Shown here piece after piece: positions 6,188 through 64,000 of a DNA stretch of 64,000 bases; within the stretch, counting starts at the first letter, position 1; the number at the start of each line of letters is the position of its first letter. Under the pieces are notes generated by a model. The model was not told where the DNA came from. It was given only the letters and a program-made list of their open reading frames with translations, and searched no databases. Source of the stretch: Escherichia phage NiC89; sequence record LC620505.1; one strand, written 5' to 3'. A program made the position numbers and the translations under genes.

Positions 6188-6217
6188 ATAGTACCACAGT
6201 ATGCTTTGGTTGTAAAC
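6188..6217 (-). promoter_or_regulatory. T4-type early promoter upstream of motA
   Basis: On - strand: GTTTAC (6212-6217), 18-bp spacer, TGGTACTAT -10 (6188-6196); conserved leader ending in GGAG before motA ATG. Confidence 0.6.
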
Positions 6218-6251
6218 CGTTTTGTGAAAAAAAAAAAATTAAAATAAAAAA

Positions 6252-6271
6252 GGGAGAGCCGAGGCTCTCCC
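6252..6271 (-). terminator. Hairpin (gggagagc-cgag-gctctccc) followed by U-run on - strand transcript
   Basis: 8-bp GC-rich stem, then rc of aaaataaaaaa gives a U-tract; lies 3' of gene 52 and a small ORF. Confidence 0.5.
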
Positions 6272-6276
6272 TAAAA

Positions 6277-6426
6277 TTACTGCATGACTGTGATAACTGT
6301 CATGATAACACGTTGAATTCCGAACGCAAGAAGACCTCCTGCTACGGCTGGAACAACACCTAAACCCGTCAGTAAAATGCTACCGGATACTAATGCAGCG
6401 CTTGTAATACCTATGAATGGACTCAT
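6277..6426 (-). CDS. Small hydrophobic protein, 49 aa (not in ORF track)
   Basis: MSPFIGITSALVSGSILLTGLGVVPAVAGGLLAFGIQRVIMTVITVMQ; ATG overlaps gene 52 stop (ATGA). Confidence 0.35.
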   Translation of the reverse strand: MSPFIGITSAALVSGSILLTGLGVVPAVAGGLLAFGIQRVIMTVITVMQ

Positions 6427-7751
6427 TTGATTTCCTCTAAATCTTTGGTGTATTCTGTAACTACATTAGTAGTTTTCCAATATTCGTTTTCTTCTTTTTT
6501 AGCTTTAGCTTCTTCAGCAAGTTTCTTTGCTTCGTCGGAAGTCATATGAAAAATATTCATTCCAACTAATTTATCAACATAAGAAGAATACATCTCAATT
6601 TTAGAAAGTTCTTCGGTCAGTTCTTTGCGAGTTTTACCCTGTACAACGATTTCACCTGAAATTACTTTCTTAATGAAATGTGCCTTGGCAAAGGCTAAAC
6701 GAAATGCTGATTCAGTTTCTTTGATTTTGTTATCAATTCGTTTTTGGACATAAGTTTTACGAACTTCAACAAAGTCTTTAATTAAATCAACTACGTTATC
6801 GTAAACTTGCAGCTTTCCTTTCTCATTAATGACTGTAATATTTTGGGAACGACGCTCAATCAACCCGAAGTCTTTCATGATTTTTGCATGGCGTTCTTCT
6901 TCGTTATCACTCAAAGCGTATTCTTTGCGGAATTTAACTTTAAAGCCAAAGCCATGCTCACCACAAGCATCATCCCACGTAATGAAGCCTTTATCTTCAA
7001 GTGGGTCTAAGATTTTACTCACATAAGTTTCACGATCATACTTATACGGAATCTCAGTGATATGCATTTGAGTTCGTGAAGTAAACTTATATGTTCCACG
7101 AATTTCATATTGTCCATCAATTTCAACGACTTCACCGCGAAATTCTGGGAATTCTACCTTCGGTTTAGTTACTTTCTTTCCTTGAAGAACTTGTAATACA
7201 GCTTTCTTGACAGAAGAAACACTATGAGGAAGAATGTAAGTTGCATAACCAGTTGCAATACCGGAAACACCATTAAGAAGAACAGTAGGAATAATAGGCA
7301 AATAGAAAGTAGGCGGAATGTGTTCTTTATCTTGATGTACCGGAGCATATTCAGTATCTTTATATACGTTATAGAAATTTTTACTTACACGAGCAAAAAT
7401 ATAACGACTTGCTGCTGCTTTTTGGACGGTACGAGAACCAAAGTTTCCTTGACCATCTAACAGAGGAAAGTTATTATTCCAAGTGTTAGCCATCAAAGCA
7501 CCTGCGTCTTGTGCAGAGTTTTCGCCATGGTGATATCCAAGGTCCGCTACACCACCTGCAATAGAAGCGAGTTTGTGAAACTTATCTTTATTTCCTCGTG
7601 CCAAATCAAGAGCTCGAGCAATAACAAATCGTTGAACTGGCTTAAATCCATCAATCATATTTGGAATAGCACGATTTTCAACCGTGTACATAGCATAAGC
7701 CAATGCTTCATTATCAATGATACTTTTTAAATCGCGATTATTCAGTTGCAT
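6423..7751 (-). CDS. 52: DNA topoisomerase II medium subunit gp52 (GyrA-like)
   Basis: 442 aa, same length as T4 gp52; GyrA-type N-terminal motifs (AIPNMIDGFKPVQRFVI...). Confidence 0.9.
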   Translation of the reverse strand: MQLNNRDLKSIIDNEALAYAMYTVENRAIPNMIDGFKPVQRFVIARALDLARGNKDKFHKLASIAGGVADLGYHHGENSAQDAGALMANTWNNNFPLLDGQGNFGSRTVQKAAASRYIFARVSKNFYNVYKDTEYAPVHQDKEHIPPTFYLPIIPTVLLNGVSGIATGYATYILPHSVSSVKKAVLQVLQGKKVTKPKVEFPEFRGEVVEIDGQYEIRGTYKFTSRTQMHITEIPYKYDRETYVSKILDPLEDKGFITWDDACGEHGFGFKVKFRKEYALSDNEEERHAKIMKDFGLIERRSQNITVINEKGKLQVYDNVVDLIKDFVEVRKTYVQKRIDNKIKETESAFRLAFAKAHFIKKVISGEIVVQGKTRKELTEELSKIEMYSSYVDKLVGMNIFHMTSDEAKKLAEEAKAKKEENEYWKTTNVVTEYTKDLEEIK

Positions 7752-7755
7752 AAAT

Positions 7756-7896
7756 TTACCATACTAGTGAATGTAGTGCCATAATAACATCAGAAATGAA
7801 AAGCACGACTTGAATTAATCCGAACATTACTCCATAATATAGTGCTACTAATAAAGCAGCAAGGGCTAATGAATAGCCCAAGATTTTCTTAATCAT
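7756..7896 (-). CDS. Small membrane protein, 46 aa (52.1-like by position)
   Basis: Hand-translated MIKKILGYSLALAALLVALYYGVMFGLIQVVLF...; overlaps next ORF by ATGATTAA. Confidence 0.35.
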   Translation of the reverse strand: MIKKILGYSLALAALLVALYYGVMFGLIQVVLFISDVIMALHSLVW

Positions 7897-8041
7897 TTTT
7901 ATTTAATAGCCAAAACAATAATAAAATTGCTAATACGCCTTGAGCTGTTGCTTGTAAAAATACTGAAGTTTCTCCAGTTATTACTGTTCCGGCGAATAAA
8001 AAGGACCAGCAGAAAAAGGCTATACCATAAACAAATTTCAT
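7889..8041 (-). CDS. Small membrane protein, 50 aa (possible ac homologue by size and position)
   Basis: Hand-translated MKFVYGIAFFCWSFLFAGTVITGETSVFLQATAQGVLAILLLFWLLNKND. Confidence 0.35.
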   Translation of the reverse strand: MKFVYGIAFFCWSFLFAGTVITGETSVFLQATAQGVLAILLLFWLLNKND

Positions 8042-8051
8042 ATTTTCCTCA

Positions 8052-8129
8052 TTAGCGTCCGAAGACGCCTTTAGTTTTAAAATTATTACGATAGAACTGC
8101 ATCACATGTTCGTTATGGAAATTACTCAT
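8052..8129 (-). CDS. stp: Stp peptide (suppressor of three-prime phosphatase; PrrC anticodon-nuclease trigger)
   Basis: 25-aa [28 protein letters not shown] closely matches remembered T4 Stp; TAATG overlap with upstream gene; GCGTC-CGAA-GACGC hairpin in its 3' end. Confidence 0.6.
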
Positions 8130-8572
8130 TAATATGCCTGCAAAACGAATTTAAAGTTATCAGCCAACATACGGTTCATTTCTTCAAGTGTTTGATACTC
8201 AGAATGATGATTACGAGTAAACGCTAAAGCTAACTGACCTTTACCAAATCCCGTCGTCAGAGGTTTCATCTTAGAAGCAGGCAGATAAAATACTGTGTAT
8301 GCCATATTGTTATTTGCAATAGTACGCGCAAGCTGAGACCGGCGTTGACGAATATGACTTAGAACTGCGCTGAATCCTTGCTTAGAACGCTGATTACCAA
8401 CATAAAATCGTGCAGACACACATGAACCATCGAATTCACTTACTAAAAAGTAAAATCCAGGTTTAGACAAAATGTCTTTATGCGGAGTTCCCAAAAACCA
8501 CTCACCGCCCTTGATTGTACCAATAACAGTAGCGCCTGCATTATTCAGATCAGTAACAGTCATATATTTCAT
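8129..8572 (-). CDS. ndd: Ndd-like protein (nucleoid disruption), size and position only
   Basis: ORF track 163 aa; GAGGAA RBS favours internal Met giving 147 aa (T4 Ndd 151 aa); lies directly upstream of stp as in T4. Confidence 0.4.
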
Positions 8573-8632
8573 ATTAATTTCCTCTAAATTATTTTCTACT
8601 CCAAGGCCGCATGAATACACACGGCCATTAAA

Positions 8633-8848
8633 TTACTCGTCGCAGTCGACGCTCAATTCCCAGAATTCTTCTACGGTATAAGTTTCAGTATCATTTTCAA
8701 TACAGAAACGTTCATTACTATTATTTGCTAAAGTAGCATTAACTGTCGGTTTCTCGCTAGTGCTCTTAAGAGGTGAAATACGAATTAACTGATCACCGTT
8801 ATCTAAACAAAAAATTTCACCAACTTTTACATCTTTAAAACTTTTCAT
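8633..8848 (-). CDS. Hypothetical protein (ndd-denB block)
   Basis: 71-aa ORF. Confidence 0.45.
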   Translation of the reverse strand: MKSFKDVKVGEIFCLDNGDQLIRISPLKSTSEKPTVNATLANNSNERFCIENDTETYTVEEFWELSVDCDE

Positions 8849-8963
8849 AATTCACCTCAAGGAGTATAAAATCCGAATGCAGTTGTTGACCATCCCATCC
8901 AATATGGAAAATTTGCACCAATGTAAAACATAAGAATATAAAACCAAATGTTTAGTAAATTCA

Positions 8964-9182
8964 TTATTTTACACCATTCCAAATTGTTTCAACTACAGAT
9001 TTTAAACCGTTTTGATGAATATCCATTCCGACTACCGCCATCAAATAGATTCCAACTACAACTGAACCTAAGGCAAAAATCAGCATAAAAATGAATAAAG
9101 CCGGAAAAATATTATCGAAAAACCATTCAATAAATGTAAAAGCACTGCGTTTACGCTTCATATTTTCCTCACATAAATCCAA
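8964..9182 (-). CDS. Hypothetical membrane protein (ndd-denB block)
   Basis: 72-aa ORF with a long hydrophobic segment. Confidence 0.45.
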   Translation of the reverse strand: MDLCEENMKRKRSAFTFIEWFFDNIFPALFIFMLIFALGSVVVGIYLMAVVGMDIHQNGLKSVVETIWNGVK

Positions 9183-9282
9183 AGTAAACGTTTAATACAT
9201 CAATCATTAAAACGATTGGGAATATACTCAAAACTACTAGTATTATAACTACATTCCATATAGCTTTAACAATCTTTTTCAT
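9169..9282 (-). CDS. Small membrane peptide, 37 aa
   Basis: MKKIVKAIWNVVIILVVLSIFPIVLMIDVLNVYFGFM preceded by GGAGGAACAGAAA; the longer track ORF 9169..9417 runs through the promoter and is rejected. Confidence 0.4.
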   Translation of the reverse strand: MKKIVKAIWNVVIILVVLSIFPIVLMIDVLNVYFGFM

Positions 9283-9310
9283 TTTCTGTTCCTCCGTAGT
9301 TGATAGGGTA

Positions 9311-9340
9311 ATAGTACCACGGAAGAACAGTCTTGTAAAC
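9311..9340 (-). promoter_or_regulatory. T4-type early promoter
   Basis: GTTTAC (9335-9340), 18-bp spacer, TGGTACTAT (9311-9319); leader ACGGAGGAACAGAAAATG. Confidence 0.55.
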
Positions 9341-9525
9341 AACTTTTTTAAAAATATTCGTAATAAATGTGAATACCAACTACTACCGCTGAAACCTGCG
9401 CAACCCACCACGCGCAAGCAATAAGTACAGAATTCAAAATTTTCATAATAACCTCATTACAAAAGTAAATGTTAAACAAATTAATGGAATACTAATTAAC
9501 CAAACGAAACACCACCATAATGAAC

Positions 9526-9789
9526 TCATAGCTCAATCTCAGCGATTTTCATTTCATTACTATTAATAGCCGCTTTAAGACTATCTGAAAGAATTACATT
9601 CCAGTGGTCATTCATATGACCATTAACTAAGCGTGTAATTTCTTCAGGAGTTGAAAAATAAGGCTGATCAGACTCCCAATGCGATAATCCTAAGCGAGTA
9701 TAAATCATGCCTTCATCATCACTAGAATATTCAACTGACACAAACTCATCAGTTATTTTATGCTTAGCATAATAAAATTTAAATTTCAT
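9526..9789 (-). CDS. Hypothetical protein, 87 aa
   Basis: Track ORF MESKMKFKF...; true start taken at MKFKFYY after the conserved GGAGAGTAAAATG leader. Confidence 0.5.
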   Translation of the reverse strand: MKFKFYYAKHKITDEFVSVEYSSDDEGMIYTRLGLSHWESDQPYFSTPEEITRLVNGHMNDHWNVILSDSLKAAINSNEMKIAEIEL

Positions 9790-9823
9790 TTTACTCTCCA
9801 AATCCGTATCAGTTGATAGTTGT

Positions 9824-9853
9824 ATAGTACCACGGTCCTTGTGGTATGTAAAC
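9824..9853 (-). promoter_or_regulatory. T4-type early promoter
   Basis: GTTTAC (9848-9853), 18-bp spacer, TGGTACTAT; conserved downstream ACAACTATCAACTGATACGGATTTGGAG. Confidence 0.6.
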
Positions 9854-9870
9854 CGTTTTGTGAAAAATTT

Positions 9871-10428
9871 TTAAATGGAAAGATACCATCCGTTGTAGTT
9901 GCTTTTTCTTACAACCTTACGAAGGTCTTCTCTGCCACCGATGAACTTCGGAGTGTACTGGATGACACCTGGATGAATTTCTTTAGTGTTGAATATAATT
10001 ATACAGTCAGCGACTTGATGATTTAGAATGGGCCCTAAATTTATTCCAGAACCATATGGATACTCTCCGCTGCATCCCGTTGTTACCGAAATCCAACGCG
10101 AGTCAGTTTGATGTGTTTTGACTTCTACACGAAGCCCGCAATATTTTGGATGCGCTAAAACATCCCATGCATACGTGTACGGATCATCGACATTTTCTTG
10201 GCCTTTATTGACATATCCGCTTAGCCAATCTGCCACAAAAAACTCTGCGTACACAGCGATACGGCATCTTTCGATAACTTCTGCTTTATCCTGGTTCGGG
10301 TTTTGTTTTAAAGAGTATCTTGCTGTATCAGCAATTTTGACCTTCATTTCACTAGTCAAGTCACTGTTCGATAGGGTAAATGTCGGAATCTGAAATAGTC
10401 TCTGTAAACCCGGATTCGTTTTCTGCAT
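9871..10428 (-). CDS. denB: Endonuclease IV DenB (putative)
   Basis: 185 aa, same length as T4 DenB; position between ndd block and rIIB. Confidence 0.6.
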   Translation of the reverse strand: MQKTNPGLQRLFQIPTFTLSNSDLTSEMKVKIADTARYSLKQNPNQDKAEVIERCRIAVYAEFFVADWLSGYVNKGQENVDDPYTYAWDVLAHPKYCGLRVEVKTHQTDSRWISVTTGCSGEYPYGSGINLGPILNHQVADCIIIFNTKEIHPGVIQYTPKFIGGREDLRKVVRKSNYNGWYLSI

Positions 10429-10472
10429 TAAACTTTCCTTTTACGTCGGAATCATAATTTCTCTTAAAACAA

Positions 10473-10488
10473 AAGGGCCGAAGCCCTT
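10473..10488 (-). terminator. UUCG-loop hairpin (aagggc-cgaa-gccctt on + strand)
   Basis: GC stem with UUCG tetraloop on the - strand RNA, U-rich tail; immediately 3' of ORF 10492..10686. Confidence 0.5.
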
Positions 10489-10491
10489 ATT

Positions 10492-10686
10492 TTATTTGAA
10501 TTGTGCGATTCTTTTCTCTAGACACTCAGCATAAGATTTCATTGAGATGAACTGTGAAAGCAGCAGTTCTTGCTCAACTGCACTAACCGTTAGAAACTTT
10601 GTGCTTTCTAAAAATTTGCTCAGTGCATTAATTTTGAGCATTAATTGATCGTATTCTTCTTTTACTCGTGCTTGATAACCTAACAT
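10492..10686 (-). CDS. Hypothetical protein, 64 aa, predicted coiled coil
   Basis: ORF between rIIB and denB, flanked by hairpins. Confidence 0.5.
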   Translation of the reverse strand: MLGYQARVKEEYDQLMLKINALSKFLESTKFLTVSAVEQELLLSQFISMKSYAECLEKRIAQFK

Positions 10687-10701
10687 AAATTTCCTTTAGT
10701 C

Positions 10702-10717
10702 AAGGGCCGAAGCCCTT
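10702..10717 (-). terminator. UUCG-loop hairpin overlapping rIIB stop
   Basis: Same agggccgaagccctt core as at 10473. Confidence 0.45.
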
Positions 10718-11654
10718 ATTTAAATTGTTCAGTAACGTCTTCAACTACTTCGTATTGGCAGGTACGCATTTTAGCATCGTTGTAATCAATCGGAATTGAT
10801 ACTACATCACGTGGATGTACTTTAACTTTTACAACTCGGCTGGTTGAACTGCCAAAGTGACGAATATAAGATTTAGAACACACATGCAGACCACGAGAAC
10901 AAGTTTGTGTATCATCGTCATTCACACGAGTACGTGGCATTTTAACTACTTTACCAGGACTGTTATCAAAGGTGTTTGAGTGACAGTCAAAGTAGTTGTC
11001 ACGAACTACTTTCCAAGCATAGAAGTAACCATCTTCTGTAATTTCAATATCGTTTGCTACCAAGAAATCAAAGAGTCGAGATACCGCTTTCTGGCTTGGG
11101 TTTTCCAGCAGATTTTCCAAGAACGGAAAATAAAATTCAAAGTTTTCACCTTTTTCCATTGAATCGAGAATACGATCAACTAAACCAGACCGTAATTCGA
11201 TATTTTGATAGAACAAGCTTCCGCCTTCAATTCGAACATCGCCGGAAATATATTTTTCAACAGCGCGACGAACATTAATTTTTTGTGCCGCTTCTTCCAA
11301 CTTATCTGCTACAAGCAGATTAAGAATTTCCTGGAAGTTTGAATGAGTATTAGGAGTTGCGTTATAAGTTACACCGTCAACAGTAATTGAAATGAATTTT
11401 TTAGATGCATTCCAAATAATGTCAGATTTAGCAACTGGAGCAATAACTGCATCGCTATTAACTTTAATTGTAATATCACCGCTAATAGTAACTTTAGAGC
11501 GTTTAGCTTCTTCAGCATTTTTCAAAACACGACGAATTGTGTCAACCGATACACCTTGCCAATCAGCCAATTCCTGTTGGGTGTAATTACCGCTTGAATA
11601 CAATTTAACAATTTCAGCTTGTTCGTTTTTGGTCAGGCATTTAATATTGTACAT
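10716..11654 (-). CDS. rIIB: rIIB membrane-associated protein
   Basis: 312 aa, same length as T4 rIIB; adjacent to rIIA. Confidence 0.85.
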   Translation of the reverse strand: MYNIKCLTKNEQAEIVKLYSSGNYTQQELADWQGVSVDTIRRVLKNAEEAKRSKVTISGDITIKVNSDAVIAPVAKSDIIWNASKKFISITVDGVTYNATPNTHSNFQEILNLLVADKLEEAAQKINVRRAVEKYISGDVRIEGGSLFYQNIELRSGLVDRILDSMEKGENFEFYFPFLENLLENPSQKAVSRLFDFLVANDIEITEDGYFYAWKVVRDNYFDCHSNTFDNSPGKVVKMPRTRVNDDDTQTCSRGLHVCSKSYIRHFGSSTSRVVKVKVHPRDVVSIPIDYNDAKMRTCQYEVVEDVTEQFK

Positions 11655-11665
11655 AATTTTCCTTA

Positions 11666-13843
11666 TTAGGCCGCAAGGGCCTTCATAGTTTTAGCGATTT
11701 GGGAAACTTCATCATCACTCAAAGAGTTACGATAACCGATGAAGTCGGAAACAATACGGAATTTCTTGGTAAACTCGGCAACCATTTTATCACTATTTTT
11801 TGAAGCATTACGTGATAATTCATCAAAGAGATTAGTTACTGTCCAGATATCATGACCGATGGTATCTTTTCCACCATTGAAATACACACCGCGTAATGAA
11901 CTAACCATATTACCAAGTCGTGTATATTCTTCAGAAACTTCATCTGTACTGAAGTACTTCATCATAAAATCTAGTTCAGGATACTTGATAATTTTATCAA
12001 TATATCGTTGAGCTGAACTTGAATAACCTACATACTTATCATAATCTACATCATCAAAAGCATCTACATATAAATCACGCAAAGCTTCAAAAATACATTG
12101 GCACTGACCGAGTTCTTTTACCTTTTTCTGTAAAAGCGGACGAATAACATAAAATTCATTAATGCCAATAAGATTAGCCATACGAATCAAAATATTCATA
12201 GATGGATGACAAAGTGATGTAGTACCATCCATAGAGAAAATATCAGAACGATGCATATACGCTACATAACCAGTAATTTCATCTGCTTCTGACGTAAGTG
12301 TAAATAGTTCCTCTTTTTCCCATCGTCCATCTTTAATTTCAAATTTAAATGCTGTAGCAGCTTTAGGACGAGGAGCTTTACTTTTAACTACCTTTGGAAT
12401 ATAGCTTTTAACTAAAGCTTCAATTTCTGACAAATAATGAATGTTAACTTCATCACTTTCAAACATTGCCATAATATCAGGTAGTAAATCAATCTGCGAT
12501 TCTACTTCCGGATTAATAAACAGAAGACGCTCATTGTGATGAATATTTAAAGTGTTATTAAATTCACTATCATCTAACGCATGCGCTAATCCACGGACAA
12601 TATTAACACGATTTTTAATATTATCAATAACGATATTAATTTTTGTTGTATTAATACCAAACAGACGATAACTTGATGCAACGGCTGAAGTTTCATGGCT
12701 TTGCTTAATGCGTTTCAGTCGAGGGTCAAGATTTACTTCATACACAACTCCTGCATTGCATAACTTACTGTCAGGTTCAAACATGCTCTGCATCTTCTTA
12801 TATGACAGATTTTTAGTCGTGAATTTGACTGAATTACTAATCATATAATCTCGAGCAGAATACCCCATCTTCATCAATTCACGATATGTATGACGAGGAG
12901 ATGTAGATTCTTTAAATCGTTTTACATCTTCATTAAATGCTTTCTCACTGAGTTCTTTAACTCGTTCAATAATATTTTTACGAGTGCGATCATCTAATGA
13001 AAGAGCTTCGCGTGATGGAGCAATATCAAGTGAACCCATTGGAAACTTAATGTAATTCACTTCATTGCGAATGCTTAGCCAGTTACGCTCTCTAATAACG
13101 CCATCGATAGGATAAACAATACCGCCATAGATAGCATATAATCCACCACGATCAGGCCAGTATCTTTCTGGATTTACACCGTAATAGTCATCAAAATCCG
13201 GAAAATAATCAATTTCACGGTCAAGACCATTAATAATAGCTAAATCTTTGAACGGTCGCATGATATAAGAAACTTCATAAGCAAAGTTGCTAAAATCTTT
13301 TTCTTCAACTGGAACTACAATTTCAATACCAGTTTTATCATCTGGACCCATTTCTTTCACGAATGTAGGTTTAATTTGTGGACCATCGCCATCCATGTAA
13401 GCTACATAACCACGAATTTCACCTTTATGATACGAAGTAATACTAAATGTATCAGTATAACTAAACGGAGATTTAGAACCTAAACCAAATCCGCCAATGA
13501 AATCGTTAGATTCAGCCTTAGATGAACTGAAGTATGAATTATACAAACCAGGAGAATTATCATCACCCTGAATATCAAAATCACTCATACCCGGACCAAA
13601 ATCTCGGCAAACAAATCGTGGATCTAAACGTCCAGGAACTTGAATGATAAATTTTTCAGGATTTCCATTGAGAGCATGGGCATCAATCATGTTGGTAATC
13701 AATTCACGAACAACTGCGCGAATTTTGTTTGTATACAAATCAGATGACAGAATTTTAAATACTTTAGGAGATGCTGTGATGCTAAATGCTTTTGATTTAG
13801 AACCATTACCAAGAATTGTTTCTTTTTCAGTGGTGATAATCAT
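11666..13843 (-). CDS. rIIA: rIIA protein
   Basis: 725 aa, same length as T4 rIIA; N-terminal GHKL-ATPase-like motifs ([15 protein letters not shown]). Confidence 0.9.
11668..11682 (-). terminator. Short hairpin (aggcc-gcaag-ggcct) at rIIA stop
   Basis: 5-bp GC stem between rIIA and rIIB. Confidence 0.3.
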
Positions 13844-13907
13844 AATTTCCTCATTAATTCATATTACGCTTAATAACTTCAGCAACTTCTAGTAGTTCAT
13901 CTTTAGT

Positions 13908-14057
13908 TGCAGTGTCGGATTGAATTTTATCTCTAATATCCTTAAAGCGGTTTTAAACTCTTCGGCTTCTCCCATATCGAAAAAGCGTTGGATGATTCTA
14001 TATTCTCGATGAACTGCTTTATCAAAAAGTTCTAAATTTACTTTATATGATTTCATT
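13908..14057 (-). CDS. Small protein, 49 aa (rIIA.1-like by position; not in ORF track)
   Basis: Hand-translated MKSYKVNLELFDKAVHREYRIIQRFFDMGEAEEFKTALRILEIKFNPTLQLKMNY; between promoter at 14082 and rIIA. Confidence 0.35.
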
Positions 14058-14081
14058 TCAATATCCTCATTTGCCCAATTA

Positions 14082-14111
14082 ATTATACCACATCCTTGTG
14101 GTAAAGTAAAC
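14082..14111 (-). promoter_or_regulatory. T4-type early promoter
   Basis: GTTTAC (14106-14111), 18-bp spacer, TGGTATAAT. Confidence 0.6.
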
Positions 14112-15931
14112 TACTGGCTCATCCATTCTTTACGAAGGTCAGCGTTATCTCCCATGAGCATTTCAAAAAGCTCTTTCCAGTTCTCAGGAAGTTTAACAAC
14201 ATCATATACTGGGTTTTGAATCATCTCACGATATTCAGATTTTTCCAAAGAGCCAAGTCCCTTAATATAACGGATGCTATGTTTAGGTAGAGCATCTTTG
14301 GCACTCTCATATTCAGCGACTGTATAAAACCATTCTTGTTTTTTACCGACCTGAGCGATGATTACAGGAGTTTTGACGAAACGAATTCTTCCTTGTTCAA
14401 ACAGTTCTGGCCAATTACTAAAAAATCCGAGCAGAGAAGGATAAATGCTTCCTAAACCATCATGGTCAGCATCGGTCATAATAGCAATATTATGATAATT
14501 CAAGTTTTCAGCTTTTTCACCAAGAACTAATCCAGTGATTGCGCAAATATCAAATAGTTCTTTGTTTTTAAGCATATCTGCATATGACATACCCCAACTG
14601 TTGAGAACTTTACCACGCAATGGATAACCACCGTGAAGTTCTTTATCACGAACATCAATAAGATATCCGATAGCCGAATCACCCTCAGTCAAGAAAAGAG
14701 TAGTGTCAGCATCTTTACCGCAAAGATTCGCTTTGATATGTTTATGAACCTTAGCTTTAGAAGCCTTTTTAGCTGCTTTAGTTTCTGCTGCTTTTTCTGC
14801 TGCTAATTTACGTGCTAAAGCAGCTTCAATAATCGGCATTAAAATTGCTTCATTATTTAGAATAGCGCGTGAAATCTTTTTAGCATCAAGTTGAATATGA
14901 CTACGAATTTCACCAAAAGGAGAAGTAAGTCGTTCTTTAGTTTGAGAATCAAATCGCATGTTTTTCATATCACGGACAAACATAACGATAGTCAAACATT
15001 CTTTGACACGCGCTTTAGTTACATCAATTTTGAACTTACGTTTGATTTGTGGAATAAGGTCTTCACAAATATCATCCATAACACAGTCAATGTGATGGCC
15101 ACCATTCTTAGTGTGAATGTTATTCACATAAGTTAATTGACGAAAACCATCAGGTGAACGACCAACCGCAATAGAACAATTTTCTTGTTCTTGAACAATA
15201 GCATGTTCATCATACTGCCGTGCATATTTCTTAAAATTGCCCTGAACCTTTTTACCATTAAAAGTAAATTGAATATCAGGATAAACAACAGCAAGTGTCT
15301 GAAGACGATCTAGTGTAATGTCAAGATAAACTTGGGACAGCTCATTAGTTTCAAATGACATAAAATCAGGAATGAAAGTAACACGAGTTCCTTTCCATTT
15401 TCCTGGAATAGTTTCCCATGATTTATTTTCCATGCCATTTGAACAACGAACTACAATATTATTTTGACCATCGCCAGTTTCACCGACAAACATCACAGAA
15501 AAAATGTTAGTTAAACTAGAACCAACACCATTCATACCACCGGTGACACGTTCTTTATCATCACCAAAGTTACCACCTGCTTTTGGAATAGTCCACGCAG
15601 CAACAGGACCAGGAATTTCTTCACCAGTAGGTGTTTTAACCATCGCTTGTGGAATACCGCGACCGTTATCTTCAACTGTCACCTGATTATTTTTAATGGT
15701 AACATTAATTTTATTTGCGAACTTAAATTTAGTACGAATACCTTCATCGACTGAGTTATCGATAATTTCATCAATAAGCTTAACAAGACCAGGTACATAC
15801 TGAACACTTTCCCATTTACCAAACAGAAAGCGCTCATGCATTTCATTAGCAGAAGAGCCAATGTACATGCCACTACGCTTTTTGATATGTTCAATATCGC
15901 TCAGAATTTTAATTTCATTCTTAATCATCAC
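14111..15931 (-). CDS. 39: DNA topoisomerase II large subunit gp39 (GyrB-like), unsplit
   Basis: 606 aa; N-terminal GyrB ATPase motifs; C-terminal ~160 aa correspond to what is a separate gene 60 in T4, read here in one frame with no bypass. Confidence 0.9.
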   Translation of the reverse strand: MMIKNEIKILSDIEHIKKRSGMYIGSSANEMHERFLFGKWESVQYVPGLVKLIDEIIDNSVDEGIRTKFKFANKINVTIKNNQVTVEDNGRGIPQAMVKTPTGEEIPGPVAAWTIPKAGGNFGDDKERVTGGMNGVGSSLTNIFSVMFVGETGDGQNNIVVRCSNGMENKSWETIPGKWKGTRVTFIPDFMSFETNELSQVYLDITLDRLQTLAVVYPDIQFTFNGKKVQGNFKKYARQYDEHAIVQEQENCSIAVGRSPDGFRQLTYVNNIHTKNGGHHIDCVMDDICEDLIPQIKRKFKIDVTKARVKECLTIVMFVRDMKNMRFDSQTKERLTSPFGEIRSHIQLDAKKISRAILNNEAILMPIIEAALARKLAAEKAAETKAAKKASKAKVHKHIKANLCGKDADTTLFLTEGDSAIGYLIDVRDKELHGGYPLRGKVLNSWGMSYADMLKNKELFDICAITGLVLGEKAENLNYHNIAIMTDADHDGLGSIYPSLLGFFSNWPELFEQGRIRFVKTPVIIAQVGKKQEWFYTVAEYESAKDALPKHSIRYIKGLGSLEKSEYREMIQNPVYDVVKLPENWKELFEMLMGDNADLRKEWMSQ

Positions 15932-15956
15932 TTATCCTCGTTTGGTTTCGGGAATA

Positions 15957-15980
15957 TTATACTCCGGTAATCATAAAGCT
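15957..15980 (-). promoter_or_regulatory. Candidate middle promoter upstream of gene 39
   Basis: On - strand AGCTTTA (MotA-box-like, 6/7), 12-bp spacer, TATAAT. Confidence 0.35.
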
Positions 15981-15998
15981 AAAGGCCCGAAGGCCTTT
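15981..15998 (-). terminator. UUCG-loop hairpin (aaggcc-cgaa-ggcctt)
   Basis: Located at the stop of ORF 15998..16267. Confidence 0.45.
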
Positions 15999-16267
15999 TA
16001 TTTAAAACGAATAGTTGAATCCTTAAAGAACAGCCCAGAACATACTGTTCCTTCTACTTTCTGCCCGGTAGGTCCAATAGCACGAAATCCAGTATGTTGG
16101 AAATCATTTTCAGAGCAACCGAACCAGTTATATCCAGTGATTTCAATATTCGTAAAACCACTTGATGATAAAATTTTAGTTGCATTATCAGCATCAGTAC
16201 ATCCTACTAAAGATACTGCTAATACTAATGCTGCGATAGAACGATTAACATATTTCATAATTTTCAC
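15998..16267 (-). CDS. Putative lipoprotein, 89 aa
   Basis: Signal peptide with lipobox LVGC|T. Confidence 0.55.
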   Translation of the reverse strand: MKIMKYVNRSIAALVLAVSLVGCTDADNATKILSSSGFTNIEITGYNWFGCSENDFQHTGFRAIGPTGQKVEGTVCSGLFFKDSTIRFK

Positions 16268-16635
16268 TTAAATTTAATGGCTTGAAGGAGACTAATAATT
16301 CTCAAACGGCTTCTTTCATCTTTAACTGTAAAAGAAAGAGGGTCACCAGATTTCATAGTAATAGTGCATTCAAAATCAAAATCTTCTGTGACTTCTTCGA
16401 AGAAGTCAAATTCTTCATCATAAATTAGAACACTACTTTGCATACTATGAAGAGTTTTTCCATCATTTCCAGTTGCTGTACCAATCATCGTAACATTACG
16501 ACCTTTCATATCTTCAACGATAAATTCGCTTGTCGATATTACAACATTAATAGAACTATTTCTATGAATAGCAGAAAATAGAAATTTCTTTTCTTCGCCT
16601 TCGCGAATACGATACTTCTTACCAATTTTAAACAT
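16264..16635 (-). CDS. Hypothetical protein, 123 aa
   Basis: ORF with overlapping start/stop to neighbours. Confidence 0.55.
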   Translation of the reverse strand: MFKIGKKYRIREGEEKKFLFSAIHRNSSINVVISTSEFIVEDMKGRNVTMIGTATGNDGKTLHSMQSSVLIYDEEFDFFEEVTEDFDFECTITMKSGDPLSFTVKDERSRLRIISLLQAIKFK

Positions 16636-16637
16636 AA

Positions 16638-16814
16638 TTACCCTTTAAGTAAGTCGTAAAATCCACCATTCACATGCTTAGGAGCAGAAGGCCGACGAGT
16701 AGACAAACGATGACATTTAGGACAAACATCATTTTCTCGTTCAGAAATCTTTTTAATTTTTTCATATTCATGCCCGCAATCTTCGGATTGGCATTTATAA
16801 TCATACATTGGCAT
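16638..16814 (-). CDS. Zinc-ribbon small protein (FmdB-like CxxC...CxxC), 58 aa, not in ORF track
   Basis: Hand-translated MPMYDYKCQSEDCGHEYEKIKKISERENDVCPKCHRLSTRRP... Confidence 0.5.
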   Translation of the reverse strand: MPMYDYKCQSEDCGHEYEKIKKISERENDVCPKCHRLSTRRPSAPKHVNGGFYDLLKG

Positions 16815-16816
16815 AA

Positions 16817-17242
16817 TTATTCCTTAAAATGTGCTTTCAGCATCTGATACAAAGACCATGCCTGTTCATTATTTTCAATAGTAACTTTCATGACCGGGAA
16901 TTCTGTGAAATCTTCTATTTGTTCTTGCTCTTTCTCTTCCTGCTCTTGCTCTTCGGCTGCCTGGTATGGATTTTCCACTTCATCAAAGAACGCAGCTTCG
17001 CTCGTTGAAAGCCAGATAAAATCTTCATCCAAAATATCTTTACCAGAAGATAACGCCAATTTTCCACTAGATGTCACAATTTTAGTAGGACGACCAAGAT
17101 AGTCAATATCTGTAACTCTAAAAGGTTCCATACCAAGACGACGTGCATAAATTCCATTTTCAGTATGGTCCTTGATAAAATTTTCTTGAGCTTGTTTATT
17201 TTTAAATTGATACCATTTATTAACTTCAAATTTAGTAGCCAT
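16817..17242 (-). CDS. Hypothetical acidic protein, 141 aa
   Basis: ORF with [12 protein letters not shown] acidic linker. Confidence 0.55.
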
Positions 17243-17457
17243 TAATAAGTTTCCTTCCAGTAAGTTGTGCCATCTTCAGTAATTTCACGGAATACACCAT
17301 AAATCGGTTGTTTATCACCGACTTTCTCATACACATAAACCGAAGTCAAGTGAGTAAACTTAACGGTATGTTCCTTTTGAACCACTACCAAATCTGGATC
17401 AAATAATACATCTTCAAATTCGTCATTAGTGCAATTCTGAACAATTTTACGTTTCAT
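17242..17457 (-). CDS. Hypothetical protein, 71 aa
   Basis: ORF, ATGA-type overlap with neighbour. Confidence 0.5.
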
Positions 17458-17470
17458 TACAATTTCCTCA

Positions 17471-17740: not shown

Positions 17741-17764
17741 TTTATTCTCCAAGTTATTTTCTGT

Positions 17765-17807
17765 ATCAGTAGTTGATATTGATATAGTACCATAATCAAC
17801 TACTGAT
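17765..17807 (-). repeat. 13-bp perfect inverted repeat (ATCAGTAGTTGAT / ATCAACTACTGAT) flanking a TGGTACTAT -10-like core
   Basis: Seen directly; variant of the conserved early-promoter cassette but without a GTTTAC -35. Confidence 0.6.
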
Positions 17808-55842: not shown

Positions 55843-55947
55843 TTAAGTCATTTATCGTTGGTTCATTATATACTGTTTCTTCATCAGTGTAAACCGGTTC
55901 TTCCGGCTCTGGCTCTACAGTTTCCCATCTAGCCGCCCACCAAGGTT

Positions 55948-58541: not shown

Positions 58542-59543
58542 TTACTTAATTAACTGTAAAGCTTGTTCAAGACGATCCAAGCGATTAACAGATTCTTCCC
58601 AAATCTTTTTAGCCTTCTCATATTCTTTCTGCGCTTTATTAGAAATTTCTAGAACTTCTTTATAAGCTTTTTCTAGTGCAACAACTTCTGGACGAATTTC
58701 TACCGGTTCAAGTGAATCGTCAAGATTATCCATTAGTTCCTCAAGGGTAGTTTCTTCTTTAGGAGTATTCGCAATTTCTTCGCATTTTTGTTGGTAAATT
58801 TCTTTATCAGTTAGTGAATAAGCACATTTCACTTCACGAAGACTAATTACAATTTTATATCCTTCCCAACCACCAATATTTTTGAAAGGATATGTATGAA
58901 TACTTTTTACAGTTTCCATACAATCCAAAGCCGTCTCTAATTGATGAGTTATAGTGCTAGCAATTGAGAAAAATTTATTAATATTCTTTTGGTTAGCTTC
59001 TGGTGTAAAAAATTCATAATTCACAAAAATAGCTACTTTATTTTTATCAAGCTCATATTCTTTTACGATAATCATATCAGAAGCCAAAGGATGAATTTGA
59101 CGATAATCGCCATAACATAATTTAGAAGCTGATTTTAGAATTTGTCCTTTAAAAAGTCTGAAATTACTAATCCAACGACGAGTAAAAATATTCTTAGGGT
59201 CTTCTTTGATATTAAGATGATAAGAATTAACATCACCGAACCAATTGTATCCTATTACACCTTTAGTTCGTTTAATTTCTTTCCCAAAATTACCAAGAAT
59301 ATCCCGATTAACTAAATATGAAAGAAGACGAGACCCTTTAAAGATTATCTTAATATCATCTTTATCTACACGGCTAGAAATTTCACGAACTTCATGAATA
59401 AATTTACTGGAAGAAACAATACTTGCATCAATACCGCTGAGCCATTGATTGATAATAGAAAGAACAGCGTTCTGACTAGACATGGGTTTAACTTTATCAT
59501 CAATAACCCTATTGAATGATTTGATATATTCGTTACGAGTCAT
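58542..59543 (-). CDS. Coiled-coil protein, ~333 aa; member 2 of tandem paralogue family
   Basis: Track ORF runs through promoter; start taken at MTRNEYIKSF after GAGGAG; C-terminal coiled coil. Confidence 0.6.
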   Translation of the reverse strand: MTRNEYIKSFNRVIDDKVKPMSSQNAVLSIINQWLSGIDASIVSSSKFIHEVREISSRVDKDDIKIIFKGSRLLSYLVNRDILGNFGKEIKRTKGVIGYNWFGDVNSYHLNIKEDPKNIFTRRWISNFRLFKGQILKSASKLCYGDYRQIHPLASDMIIVKEYELDKNKVAIFVNYEFFTPEANQKNINKFFSIASTITHQLETALDCMETVKSIHTYPFKNIGGWEGYKIVISLREVKCAYSLTDKEIYQQKCEEIANTPKEETTLEELMDNLDDSLEPVEIRPEVVALEKAYKEVLEISNKAQKEYEKAKKIWEESVNRLDRLEQALQLIK

Positions 59544-59571
59544 ATTAATCTCCTCAGTAGAAAGTAAGAAC

Positions 59572-59601
59572 ATTATACCACATCCTTGTGGCAAAGTAAA
59601 C
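59572..59601 (-). promoter_or_regulatory. T4-type early promoter
   Basis: GTTTAC (59596-59601), 18-bp spacer, TGGTATAAT; near-identical to the cassette at 14082. Confidence 0.6.
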
Positions 59602-60620
59602 TAGTTCAGTGCATTTAATGCATTGTTCAGTTTAGAACGTTGCTTTGTCAGATTTTGAACCCTTGACTGAGCTTGTTCTAACGCCTTTTCAGCTTCTAGC
59701 ACTTCATTGGTCGCTTTAACGAGTTCATCATCTACTGTCTTAAGAGACTTCTCAATCGCATCCGCGTGCCATTTTTCAACAGGTTTAAGACTCGGATTTT
59801 CAGTAGGAAGAAAATTCACTTTATTAAATTTCCATGCATCTTTATTACCTGAGCTATACATCCAAAATTTAGGATCGTTTGATGAGCAATTAGATAAATT
59901 TAAGTTATCTTGCACTTCCTGCTTTTTCTCTTGCGGGACTTCATCCTTTCTCAAAAAATCGTATTTAAATGAAACGATCATATCAAGTTCATACGTTGTT
60001 GTATGTTCCCAATTTCGCTCAAAATGAGGTAAAATCTTAGATTGAACAGCGGCAACAACATCCATATACTTAAATGCTTCTGTCAACTGTGATTTAAGGC
60101 ATTCACAAATTGAAAGAGAATTTTTTGTATTAGGTTTAAAGCTAATTCGTGCAGTTCTATTATTTTCTTTTAATGGTCTTACTTCCATCTGAAGAGTATA
60201 ACCATCAAATTTCAGGTTCTTTAAGTTAATGTCAGAACCTTTTAATCGACTAGCTGTCGACAAAATTTGCTTTAATTGTTTACGGAATAGAGCAATAAAT
60301 CTCCATTCAAGACGGTAATGATTTGGATTAAAAAATCCTGTTGATAAATCAACCTTACTCTGACCAACGCCTTGAACAAATAGAGGATTTTTATAATCAA
60401 TAGTTTTACAGAAATCGGTGAGCTGTTCACGAGCAGTCATTTGCGTAATATATCCAGCTTTATCAAAATGTCGCAACCATTCACTGCTATTCATATACTT
60501 AAAGTGAATGGAACTATTAACTCTATCAGGGTCTAAATTATTTTGGCACAAAAATGTCATAACATTACGGGTATAGCTGGCATTACGAACCATATCTTCA
60601 ATTTGAGAACGAGTTTTCAT
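59601..60620 (-). CDS. Coiled-coil protein, 339 aa; member 3 of tandem paralogue family
   Basis: N-terminus MKTRSQIEDMV; C-terminal coiled coil. Confidence 0.6.
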   Translation of the reverse strand: MKTRSQIEDMVRNASYTRNVMTFLCQNNLDPDRVNSSIHFKYMNSSEWLRHFDKAGYITQMTAREQLTDFCKTIDYKNPLFVQGVGQSKVDLSTGFFNPNHYRLEWRFIALFRKQLKQILSTASRLKGSDINLKNLKFDGYTLQMEVRPLKENNRTARISFKPNTKNSLSICECLKSQLTEAFKYMDVVAAVQSKILPHFERNWEHTTTYELDMIVSFKYDFLRKDEVPQEKKQEVQDNLNLSNCSSNDPKFWMYSSGNKDAWKFNKVNFLPTENPSLKPVEKWHADAIEKSLKTVDDELVKATNEVLEAEKALEQAQSRVQNLTKQRSKLNNALNALN

Positions 60621-61986: not shown

Positions 61987-62514
61987 TTATGCGAGTACCG
62001 TCTTTAACCGTTCTTCAAACTTCCGAAGAGTATTTTGGCGTTCAGCTCTTTGCTTTTTGTAAGTTTCAATACGCTCTGAAATGAGAGTGTATCGTTCATT
62101 TACTGATTCTTTCATAAAATCAGGAATTTCACGAGAAGCTTTAATCTCATCAAATTTATCAATAACAGCTTGCTCTTCAGCAATTAAGTTATCATACATT
62201 AAAATATCTTTCTTGATGAACTCAATATCTTCTTGAGTTACACGAGATAATTTAGATGCTTTATCCTTTTTGTACTGTTCGTTAGTATCACGAGACCAGT
62301 GTAATGTACGATTTTTATTCGTATTTTTGTAAATTTCTACAATACCAATTTCATCAATAATAACGATCCAATTCCAACGGGATTTGTAAATTTGTCCTCC
62401 ATCAACAGTGATTTCACCTCCGATTGAGATGTCATTAAAGAACTTGCTTTGTGCTTCAGATTTAAATTTACCATCGTTGTAATTTACCAGGTTGAAAATA
62501 TCTTTAGCATTCAT
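61987..62514 (-). CDS. Hypothetical coiled-coil protein, ~175 aa
   Basis: Track ORF runs through promoter; start at MNAKDIF after conserved ACGGAGGAACACAAA leader. Confidence 0.55.
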   Translation of the reverse strand: MNAKDIFNLVNYNDGKFKSEAQSKFFNDISIGGEITVDGGQIYKSRWNWIVIIDEIGIVEIYKNTNKNRTLHWSRDTNEQYKKDKASKLSRVTQEDIEFIKKDILMYDNLIAEEQAVIDKFDEIKASREIPDFMKESVNERYTLISERIETYKKQRAERQNTLRKFEERLKTVLA

Positions 62515-62542
62515 TTTGTGTTCCTCCGTAGTTGATAGTTGT

Positions 62543-62572
62543 ATAGTACCACAGAGGAACAGTCTTGTAAAC
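62543..62572 (-). promoter_or_regulatory. T4-type early promoter
   Basis: GTTTAC (62567-62572), 18-bp spacer, TGGTACTAT; nearly identical to the cassette at 9311. Confidence 0.6.
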
Positions 62573-62574
62573 AA

Positions 62575-62889
62575 CTAAAAGAAACTTCTTTCACAATTTT
62601 TTCCACTAAACCATGCGCTGACCGCTTTCTTAGTCTCAGGAGCAGTGTTATCCATAAACCATTCAAAGGCAGCCTTTTTATGATTCTGGAGGGCTTCTCG
62701 GGCTTTAATCTGCTCACGGTCTATTAACACTAACATATGAGCCTTTCTTGTCACCAAGGGCTTCTTATGATTCTTGGAGTATTCCCAGTCATTTGTCCAA
62801 CGCATTGTCGTTGCGAACTGATGAACCGCGTCTTTAATTTTAGTTTCATAAATTTCACGAGCCTTTGAGTATAACATCACTACCTCCAT
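62575..62889 (-). CDS. Hypothetical protein, 104 aa
   Basis: ORF. Confidence 0.5.
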   Translation of the reverse strand: MEVVMLYSKAREIYETKIKDAVHQFATTMRWTNDWEYSKNHKKPLVTRKAHMLVLIDREQIKAREALQNHKKAAFEWFMDNTAPETKKAVSAWFSGKNCERSFF

Positions 62890-62978
62890 TCACCAGTTTA
62901 ATTCTAGTCATCTTTTTGATGGCAGTCCATATAATCTATTTCTGAACTGCCTTTTTGTCATAGAAGTCCTCTTATGAA

Positions 62979-63947
62979 TTATTTCAGAAGAGTAACCTCA
63001 GCGATTTCTTCCCAACCGTTTTTGTCGGTCATAATAAAGTCAGCAAGATAAAGAGCAGTACGCAGTGAAACATTGCGTAAACGATTAACATTGACTTTCA
63101 TCCATGATAATGCTTTATAAGTTTCTTCATCAGAAAGACCGCGCTTTTGCATCATGTCAGTTGAAAGAATAACATCTTCAACCCTGACCATAATTTCTTC
63201 ATTAGTGTGAACACCCAAATCTAAATAAACTGAGCGGGACACTAATGCTTGTAAATGTGGAGCAAGTTTAGTACCACGGTCTAATTCGCGGTCAATGTCA
63301 ACGTTTGTGATAAAAACAATCGTTCCTTTAAATTCAAACTCACGCTCAATGCCTTTTTCTTCTAAGTAAGAAGATGCAGTGCTCCAGCAGACTTTACGGG
63401 TCTCTCCAGTGTCCAGAGCGGCTTTTAGAAGATTAAGAATATCCATATCAGAGAAAACATCCACATCATCAATCAAAAGGACAGAATTCTCTTCACGATT
63501 ATTCCAAAGCTGCTCATAAAGACCGATACCGGAGATTTTACCGTTAATGCTTTTATATTCAATGTATCCAATATCATTTGCTTTATTTAAAGCTTTATCT
63601 AAAGAATACGTTTTACCAATACCTGCTGCACCAGAGATAATTAATGAACGAATGTTTCCGTTAATAATACCATTCGTCATCATTCCCATAACATTAAATC
63701 TTTTATTAATGCGGGTTTTCATATCTTCATACGATTCTTTAACTTCTTCAACTTTTACACCATCATATGAAATGTCTGATTTGTAAACCCAAACACCGCG
63801 ACGTTTACCGTCAATTTCAACAAAAACTTTACCATCTCCTTGTGCATCTACCGGAGCATTATCTGGGAACCATTCGCCTAAGAGCTCAAAAGTTCCAGAG
63901 ATTTCTTTACCGAAGTAGATACCCTTATTGATAGTTACAGTTTTCAT
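62979..63947 (-). CDS. P-loop NTPase, ~322 aa
   Basis: Walker A SGAAGIGKT, Walker B VLLIDDVD; start at MKTVTI after conserved GGAGAATAAA leader. Confidence 0.6.
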   Translation of the reverse strand: MKTVTINKGIYFGKEISGTFELLGEWFPDNAPVDAQGDGKVFVEIDGKRRGVWVYKSDISYDGVKVEEVKESYEDMKTRINKRFNVMGMMTNGIINGNIRSLIISGAAGIGKTYSLDKALNKANDIGYIEYKSINGKISGIGLYEQLWNNREENSVLLIDDVDVFSDMDILNLLKAALDTGETRKVCWSTASSYLEEKGIEREFEFKGTIVFITNVDIDRELDRGTKLAPHLQALVSRSVYLDLGVHTNEEIMVRVEDVILSTDMMQKRGLSDEETYKALSWMKVNVNRLRNVSLRTALYLADFIMTDKNGWEEIAEVTLLK

Positions 63948-63984
63948 TTTATTCTCCAAATCTGTATCAGTAGTTGATAGTTGT

Positions 63985-64000
63985 ATAGTACCATAAAGCT
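63985..64000 (-). promoter_or_regulatory. Early promoter cassette, -10 half only (truncated by window end)
   Basis: TGGTACTATACAACTATCAACTACTGATACAGATTTGGAG present; -35 lies beyond the window. Confidence 0.45.

Follow-up and report, generated by a model that had tools for sequence, protein, structure and literature searches.

The early promoters of bacteriophage T4 have been described as "uber" promoters, which combine UP, -35, TGn and -10 elements with extra consensus regions (PMC2988021). T4-type phages are also known to contain promoter-early stem-loop (PeSL) cassettes (Arbiol 2010; Comeau 2014), in which an A/T tract, a promoter, a stem-loop, a Shine-Dalgarno (SD) sequence and an ATG are found within ~100 bp. 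The PeSL consensus of PST and T4 is TTTACW-N17-TAYWAT (PMC4122927), and the stems may sit in the -35/-10 interval or overlap the -10 (PMC2839356). A different arrangement has been described for the T4 genes e, soc, 49 and I-TevI: hairpins at their late promoters hide the SD or AUG in long transcripts, and an inner promoter located within the 5' part of the structure gives rise to transcripts without the 5' arm, which can be translated (PMC3014915). Here, we analysed a stretch of 64,000 nucleotides of Escherichia phage NiC89 (LC620505.1; hereafter, the window), for which an earlier note had proposed, from the letters alone, that a conserved early-promoter cassette, in some copies with an embedded hairpin, recurs at least 15 times on the minus strand. 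We find that these cassettes are very probably immediate-early promoters of the T4 type, a real and already described feature, and that covarying stems joining the promoter spacer to the leader indicate a selected RNA structure in a subset of them.

Judged by sequence similarity, the window derives from a Tequatrovirus and is collinear with T4. A megablast search with positions 5000-25000 returned 984 phage records, headed by Tequatrovirus genomes that are ~96% identical and carry rIIA, rIIB, topoisomerase, dda, dexA and motA. On the T4 map (AF158101), the window runs from position 2737, equivalent to ~160.2 kb, via the map origin to ~55.4 kb; by extrapolation, its position 1 lies near T4 157.5 kb. 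According to GC skew and annotation, genes are oriented on the minus strand from ~3.4 kb onward, and this is the strand of every early cassette and early promoter of the window described below, as well as of the terminator hairpin at 6251-6272. For comparison, an IMG/VR search with MotB provided seven loci, after which GenBank phage records were used. Rfam contained no family matching anything within the window.

The strict pattern GTTTAC-N16-KR-TANNNT occurs 15 times in the window against 0.24 expected from dinucleotide shuffles, which never gave more than two matches; all 15 are on the minus strand, and none is present on the plus strand. They comprise 14 of the sites listed before, whose coordinates are the low-coordinate ends of the 30-nt pattern matches (we name cassettes after the position of the -35 G), and the asiA promoter at 3723-3752, outside the range covered by the earlier note (cassette 3689-3777, G 3752, ATG 3691, downstream open reading frame (ORF) starting MNKNIDTVRE). 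Listed site 23370, the srd cassette (23332-23424, G 23399, ATG 23334), is missed by the strict pattern because the bases preceding its -10 differ, and is recovered by a position-weight matrix (PWM) built from the cassette sites. Listed site 63985, upstream of an nrdC.10-like ORF (63945-64000, ATG 63947), is truncated, its -35 lying beyond the window end. The PWM matched the gene strand 17 times in the window and 32 times in T4, and the antisense strand neither there nor in seven further loci. The predicted abundance of the motif was thus borne out and even exceeded, as the total is ~20 copies, at least five of which are additional: besides 3752 (asiA), these are 17813, 30881 (sp; 30821-30906, with ATTTAC, the position being the G-equivalent, and ATG 30823), 45942 (within gene 47; 45913-45967, with TTTTAC, orthologue of T4 Pe35.3) and 50929 (50836-50954, ATG 50838, orthologue of T4 Pe40.4). 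Could all these matches have arisen by chance, the genome being A/T-rich and the sigma-70 consensus loose? Hexamer pairs of the generic sigma-70 type are indeed common in the window and not enriched over shuffles (64 matches versus 82), from which it follows that the signal resides in the extended motif and not in bare hexamers. The extended motif, however, is found on the gene strand only and at 15 against 0.24 expected, the cassette makes up the top families of an unbiased repeat search (D1-D4 and D8), and orthologous sites in other genera conserve it; the PWM strand bias, the repeat search and the shuffle counts together refute this explanation, whose probability we consider negligible.

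Two further sites bear on the boundaries of the family. Site 43551 fits a loose promoter pattern and was rejected as an early cassette, being the middle promoter P45.2 with a MotA box. In addition, an exact match to the core pattern at 55865-55894 (GTTTACACTGATGAAGAAACAGTATATAAT) lies within coding sequence and lacks an A/T-rich upstream tract; either an internal promoter or coincidence could account for it.

Each cassette is ordered as an A/T-rich UP-like tract, a GTTTAC(A/T) -35, a 17-bp spacer and a TG-extended -10, TGGTA(C/T)(T/A)AT, followed by a start block, CTATCAAC, a leader of 25-45 nt, usually with a GGAG SD, and the ATG of a small early gene. The consensus of 16 copies reads ..aAaaattTTtcA.AaA.ttGTTTACat...(spacer)...taTGGTAttATA.aa.taTcAacTa.., in which the upstream tract (aAaaattTTtcA.AaA) holds 8.3 bits over 30 columns, the -35 10.2 bits, the spacer 2.0 bits, the TG plus -10 12.3 bits, the 18 nt after the -10 7.1 bits and the further leader 3.2 bits. 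Generic sigma-70 sites of E. coli contain 6.5 bits (PMC1807945), and 12.8 bits would suffice to locate 18 sites in the window. The cassette total of ~43 bits is an inflated estimate because the sites were chosen by motif match, but the gap to 6.5 bits is large despite this, in agreement with the strong conservation claimed earlier. The start block is found 4 nt past the -10 in 9/13 Dhakavirus and 7/12 Mosigvirus-like promoters, and this conservation across genera makes it a promoter feature and not merely a trace of recent copying. Column counts show a strong preference for A at the seventh base after the -10; together with the position of the -10, they make the first A of CTATCAAC the probable transcription start site.

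Identity over the full ~50 bp, through the transcribed leader, had been attributed to all 15 copies; it holds for only six to seven copies, about a third, and defines a subfamily (6188, 9824, 37071, 62543, 63985, 17784 and, partly, 9311). The long leader motif TATACAACTATCAACTAC has six copies at up to three mismatches against 0.09 expected. The near-identical pairs that had been noticed are confirmed: 9278-9344 and 62510-62576 (sites 9311 and 62543) share 90% over 67 nt, and 14082-14113 and 59572-59603 share 97% over 32 nt.

All tested sequence features of the T4 early promoter class are present in the cassettes: the A/T-rich upstream tract, GTTTAC, the 17-bp spacer, the TGGTAYAAT-like -10, the orientation and the downstream genes (asiA, motA, motB, srd, modB, sp, dmd and others). 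The cassettes are all co-oriented with downstream prereplicative genes and stand at positions orthologous to T4 promoters, among them motA, Pe35.3, Pe40.4 and Pe41, the last three of which have primer-extension support in T4 (PMC6024815). Several window sites are sequence-identical to their T4 orthologues, and the motB site is annotated as a "promoter" feature in the record of Yersinia phage fPS-2. Nothing essential differs from the T4 class, the differences being an inversion of the motB loop, ORFs gained or missing after three cassettes and the phage-specific number of cassettes. The promoter identity proposed earlier is therefore well founded, and host sigma-70 RNA polymerase would be expected to use the cassettes on DNA entry with no phage protein required. 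Weighing against this account are the inflation of the information estimate, the non-independence of orthologous sites in related phages as samples, and the fact that start sites and early timing in NiC89 rest on T4 orthology.

The proposed match to PeSLs also stands. The window cassettes fit the published consensus and anatomy (PMC4122927; PMC2839356), their stems lie in the -35/-10 interval or overlap the -10, and some insertions/deletions (indels) in relatives start or end in cassettes. There are, however, differences in the stems. The PeSLs of RB49 and phi1 have near-perfect TTGACA/TATAAT boxes and G/C-rich stems that were interpreted as terminators, whereas the stems in the window contain more A/T, carry no U tail and in many cases join the spacer to the leader or SD. 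In PST, the stems lie immediately upstream of the promoter, according to the published figure legend; this applies to 4/17 of the window cassettes examined.

When 17 window cassettes were folded from the -35 to the ATG, six to seven were found to have strong spacer/leader stems, three a spacer hairpin, one a leader hairpin and four an upstream terminator; 6/17 have no notable stem. The srd cassette lacks a notable hairpin. The embedded hairpins, whose presence in some copies had been predicted, have z scores of -3.3 to -5.7 against shuffles. The 9340 cassette (9280-9365, ATG 9282) pairs spacer 9316-9330 with leader and SD 9286-9300 (15 pairs, dG -22.7 kcal/mol), the -10 being in the loop. That upstream of the nrdC.8-like ORF (62512-62597, G 62572, ATG 62514) pairs 62548-62561 with 62519-62532 and covers the SD GGAGG (14 pairs, -20.2 kcal/mol), and the motB.2 cassette (19467-19551, G 19526, ATG 19469) pairs 19502-19519 with 19477-19493 and covers the SD GAGGA (17 pairs, -23.7 kcal/mol). 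The 17813 cassette (17738-17838, ATG 17740), which has a degenerate -35, ATATAC, so that 17813 is its G-equivalent, pairs 17788-17807 with 17765-17784 (18 pairs, -20.2 kcal/mol). In the dmd cassette (31323-31409, G 31384, ATG 31325), 31363-31377 pairs with 31342-31356 around the -10 (15 pairs, -18.9 kcal/mol), and in the motB cassette (18333-18434, G 18409, ATG 18335), 18389-18401 pairs with 18367-18380, with the -10 in the loop (13 pairs, -22.8 kcal/mol). All these strong stems have the promoter spacer as their 5' arm and a 3' arm in the leader, and hold the -10 in the loop. The modB cassette (24679-24762, G 24737, ATG 24681) is the exception, as its 5' arm at 24700-24713 starts in the -10 and pairs with the SD and ATG at 24679-24692 (14 pairs, -18.0 kcal/mol). 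The 3' arm covers the SD at 9340, 62572, 19526 and 24737.

The remaining structures are simpler. A short spacer hairpin, TACCAC(A)...(T)GTGGTA, is present in the cassettes at 14111 (14054-14136, ATG 14056, upstream of an rIIA.1-like ORF), where TACCACA-AGGA-TGTGGTA reaches across the TG into the first bases of the -10; at 59601 (59541-59626, ATG 59543, upstream of an nrdC.4-like ORF), which has almost the same 30-bp core as 14111; and at 9853 (9787-9878, ATG 9789), a member of the long-leader subfamily, where it is the small TACCAC/GTGGTA. Classic terminator hairpins accompany four cassettes only. Two are adjacent: at 6251-6272, AGGGAGAGC-ctcg-GCTCTCCCT plus a T run lies just upstream of the long-leader motA cassette (6144-6242, G 6217, ATG 6146), and AAGGAATCC-ttcg-GGATTCCTT plus a T run borders, on the upstream side, the mrh.2 cassette (26780-26874, G 26838, ATG 26782). 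The other two are ~100 nt upstream of the long-leader 37100 cassette (37034-37125, ATG 37036) and of 51368 (51306-51393, ATG 51308), the orthologue of T4 Pe41.

Spacer/leader pairing is a recurrent property of these promoters: 41/122 promoter-like sites in the window, T4 and five other loci have a duplex z below -3, and T4 itself has hairpin-bearing promoters upstream of regB, denV, ipI, ipII, alc, dmd, motB, motB.2 and others. MAFFT with RNAalifold misaligned the arms of the SD-covering set, in which stems are in different registers, and we therefore used per-sequence duplex energies and a test of own against cross pairing. With all 71 leaders tried, the spacer's best partner is its own leader in 18/71 unique types, where about one is expected by chance. 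The stems also change sequence and remain complementary. At motB, GGGACC/GGTCCC in Tequatrovirus becomes GGGGTC/GACCCC in Gaprivervirus and GAGAGCC/GGCTCTC in Dhakavirus, and RNAalifold on ten motB promoters gave eight pairs, five of them with compensatory changes. The motB.2 orthologues have TCCTCGGTTAG.../...CTACTGAGGA versus TCTCCTCATG/CATGAGGAGA, the ndd.4-like genes CTGTTCTTCCGTGGT/ACTACGGAGGAACAG versus ATCTCCAGTGG/CTACTGGAGAT and ATCTCCATTAG/CTAATGGAGAT, and the pairs TCTCCATTAG/CTAATGGAGA, TCTCCAGT/ACTGGAGA and TCTCCTCATG/CATGAGGAGA likewise differ among orthologues and paralogues while staying complementary. Of the structured cassettes, chosen strand-symmetrically, 33/41 fold more stably in the sense than in the antisense orientation (p = 1e-4), the G+T content being unbiased at 0.49. 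Covarying, sense-strand-specific stems with one arm in the spacer indicate a selected RNA structure.

The motB loop itself is polymorphic. At ~18381-18388, within the hairpin 18367-18401, NiC89 has GTTATACTCT, the reverse complement of the AGAGTATAAT present in T4 and nine other relatives, which changes TATAAT at 17-bp spacing into TACTCT (17 bp) or TATACT (15 bp). The flipped loop is also found in KIT03, fPS-2, G4507, KMB42 and MLF4; ~370 records show 90-95% identity, consistent with the T4 orientation.

What the stems do has to be considered from their geometry. The 5' arm precedes the start site and is therefore missing from transcripts of the gene's own promoter, so that the hairpin requires RNA begun at a promoter further upstream; such read-through RNA is plausible because promoters follow each other in tandem on the same strand without intervening terminators, as at 19526, 18409 and 17813, within 1.7 kb. 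A spacer/leader hairpin would then mark or limit read-through RNA: where its 3' arm covers the SD, it would hide it, and elsewhere it would probably act as an attenuator or 3'-end stabiliser. The genes e, soc, 49 and I-TevI of T4 provide a precedent, whose geometry is matched at 9340, 19526, 24737 and 62572, given start sites placed from the -10. Those genes use late promoters, which delay expression, whereas the inner promoters in the window are early, and by analogy the switch would restrict translation to the immediate-early burst. Folding predictions go some way in this direction. The predicted accessibility from SD to AUG falls from 0.67 in RNA of the own promoter to 0.45 in read-through RNA; this drop of 0.23 compares with 0.10 for 298 control gene starts (p = 4e-7), and drops above 0.3 are found for 39% of cassette genes versus 9% of controls. 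Against a general role in hiding the SD, only 9/21 unique types with strong stems include it, more than half of the strong stems leaving it uncovered, unlike in the T4 genes e, soc, 49 and I-TevI. The accessibility of 0.45 is moreover that of ordinary internal genes and so not unusually low, which weakens such a role further. We therefore propose only tentatively that stems hide the SD on read-through RNA, and a family-wide "promoter-of-origin" switch, in which the SD would be free only in RNA from the gene's own early promoter, is possible but on the doubtful side; in the accessible literature, we found no such switch for early promoters.

A role as attenuator or stabiliser is, taken alone, about as uncertain. 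Related to it is the proposal made by the PeSL authors for RB49 and phi1 that embedded and upstream stem-loops are mainly terminators or attenuators insulating the cassettes from upstream transcription. An RB49 PeSL stem-loop did lower downstream lacZ about as much as a strong terminator (PMC2839356), the sense-strand bias fits an RNA role, and the four cassettes with upstream terminators (6217, 26838, 37100 and 51368) lack a strong embedded stem, suggesting that the two devices interchange. But this complementarity is not significant at the present sample size, what follows the embedded stems is A-rich or mixed sequence and not a U run, and T4 early transcripts reportedly continue into the genes downstream, the 3' ends mapped for them being thought to be ends of stable RNA and not termination sites (PMC6024815). 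As a main function, we therefore hold insulation by termination to be a minority prospect; a mixture of SD-hiding and attenuator or stabiliser roles is likely. The inverted repeats might instead act in DNA, a cruciform or hairpin presenting the -10 in its loop and thereby tuning promoter opening or the response to supercoiling, and the -10 hexamer is indeed in the loop of all strong stems but 24737. However, spacer and leader are the only free positions, and geometry alone would put the -10 there. Loops of 8-15 nt and A/T-rich stems also extrude poorly. The greater stability of the sense fold, and G-U pairs in it that become C-A mismatches on the other strand, favour RNA structure over a DNA cruciform, which we regard as very improbable. 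As a separate observation, the middle promoter P45.2 (MotA box TGCTTTA and TATAAT, 43503-43551) is likewise enclosed by a hairpin, of 15 pairs, with a 3' arm extending to the ATG, so that the promoter-in-hairpin design extends beyond early promoters.

PeSLs had also been put forward as recombination substrates, and this part of the comparison is supported by examples and not by numbers. Relative to T4, ES21, BCH953P2 and five IMG/VR contigs, we counted ~24 distinct indels or replacements, many of them T4 homing-endonuclease or intron insertions (mobA, mobB, mobC, I-TevII and the segA region). A boundary falls in a cassette in four. This is mildly above random (~7%) but not above the gene-junction null (~30%), and recombination at cassettes is therefore illustrated, not demonstrated. 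At 6174-6196, ES21 (L016 31934-32346) has 322 extra bp at the motA cassette, with a 75-codon ORF between two cassettes and a 23-bp direct repeat, the switch falling within CTATCAA; its motA-proximal second cassette is Dhakavirus-like (NC-G), and its MotA is 97% identical to that of the window. A similar tandem cassette pair is present in LF82-1 (L018 33196 and 33517). The indel at 9558-9784 is a 76-codon ORF directly after the ATG of the 9853 cassette that is absent from T4, with ~12 bp of microhomology. The indel at 17532-17733 is a deletion of 200 bp in T4 and most relatives, which starts 7 nt after the ATG and leaves a four-codon remnant; NiC89 has an 89-codon ORF at 17471-17740 after the 17813 cassette, of which the T4-type deletion leaves ATGGAAATTCGCTAA (MEIR-stop), unannotated in T4. 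Finally, at 36789-37023, an extra lipoprotein-like ORF absent from T4 follows the 37100 cassette and is flanked by ATGAAAATYGTTAT repeats. It encodes a lipoprotein-like signal peptide (MKIVMGCLAVCLVALAA...), and the next, imm.1-like gene starts with the same codons (MKIVILVIALGLTGC...), which suggests tandem duplication or recombination at shared N-terminal codons. The three indels other than that of ES21 begin 5-13 nt past the cassette ATG, and all four fit the zone between the -10 and the ATG in which the crossovers of RB49 mini-circles were sequenced (PMC2839356). As a mechanism, we infer that repeated identities of 20-70 bp would serve as homology patches for the gain, loss and swap of small early genes between relatives.

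A stronger version of this idea holds that the cassettes are kept similar as recombination linkers, by PeSL shuffling and mini-circles, so that identity itself is selected and promoter function comes second. Subfamily identity does reach the spacer, a segment in which base-specific contacts with RNA polymerase are few; there are mosaic cassettes, such as 9340, which combines a 62572-like spacer with a TTACCCTATCAAC block; and the replacement of the ES21 motA cassette by a Dhakavirus-like one, with the extra ORF in between, and the RB49 crossovers point the same way. Pairing with the leader and SD also accounts for the identity of the spacer, however. The start block is conserved at orthologous sites across genera, which points to function, and most indels that leave the cassettes untouched are homing-endonuclease insertions or plain ORF indels. 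We consider selection for linker identity unlikely, slightly more so than termination.

Reading the cassettes as T4-type early promoters has consequences for the genes behind them. Several leaders have no in-frame stop, so that mechanical ORF calls run through them, and the false N-terminal extensions that had been suspected are indeed produced: 45 false codons precede the start at 9340 (GTITLSTTEEQK|M) and 20 do so at 62572 (GTIQLSTTEEHK|M), and a further example is ...LENK|M. The leaders also carry the proposed target of the RegB endoribonuclease. GGAG is located at most 20 nt from the ATG in 12/19 cassette genes versus 6/77 other genes, the latter crudely called (odds ratio 20, p = 9e-7). 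The strong RegB/S1 site is GG*AGRAYARAA (PMC3014915), and the exact 11-mer GGAGRAYARAA is present in the leaders of 17813 (SD GGAGAATAAAA), 37100 and 63985; motA (6217; SD GGAGATTAGAA) and 9853 have one mismatch, and the other cassette leaders two to four. The arrangement of GGAG in the SD of early genes followed by an A-rich tract is the same in T4, where motA is a known target. By analogy, the phage RegB/S1 nuclease would later cut these GGAG(A-rich) sites and shut off the cassette messages; in contrast to T4, cleavage in NiC89 is a prediction, and the regB gene, at 62.3-62.7 kb on the T4 map, falls past the end of the window.

Two other features of the window deserve mention. A second repeat family, AAAGGGCCGAAGCCCTT, is found at 10473-10488, 10702-10717, 15965-15998, 39972-39998, 42142-42168, 46836-46878 and 50475-50517; its gene-strand form, GGGCTTCGGCCC, has a UUCG loop and resembles a standard intrinsic terminator of the T4 type. 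In modB, an A run at ~24598-24609 has two extra A (A8 here, A5 in T4), which shifts the frame after codon 27 and leaves the remaining ModB in another frame. Possible explanations are a pseudogene, slippage at this site and an error in sequencing.

In summary, the cassettes delineate the units of early transcription in a T4-like phage and are a textbook case of a phage outcompeting host promoters, so that finding them again adds little by itself. What is added here is the spacer-leader pairing in about one-third of the cassettes, its covariation across genera, the greater stability of the stems on the sense RNA strand and, in a subset, the covering of the SD. The covarying stems are a refinement of a known system, and the features specific to NiC89 are only small polymorphisms. 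For annotation, the cassettes mark true gene starts, and false N-terminal extensions can be removed accordingly. If the promoter-of-origin switch is true, the SD would be translatable and open to RegB in RNA from a gene's own promoter, and hidden and protected by the stem in read-through RNA, which would be a mirror-image counterpart to the hairpins at the late promoters of e, soc, 49 and I-TevI. The translation of many small early genes would then be limited to the first minutes despite later read-through. A hairpin layer of this kind could explain how tandem early promoters avoid cross-talk, and why their spacers, which are normally free to drift, are conserved.

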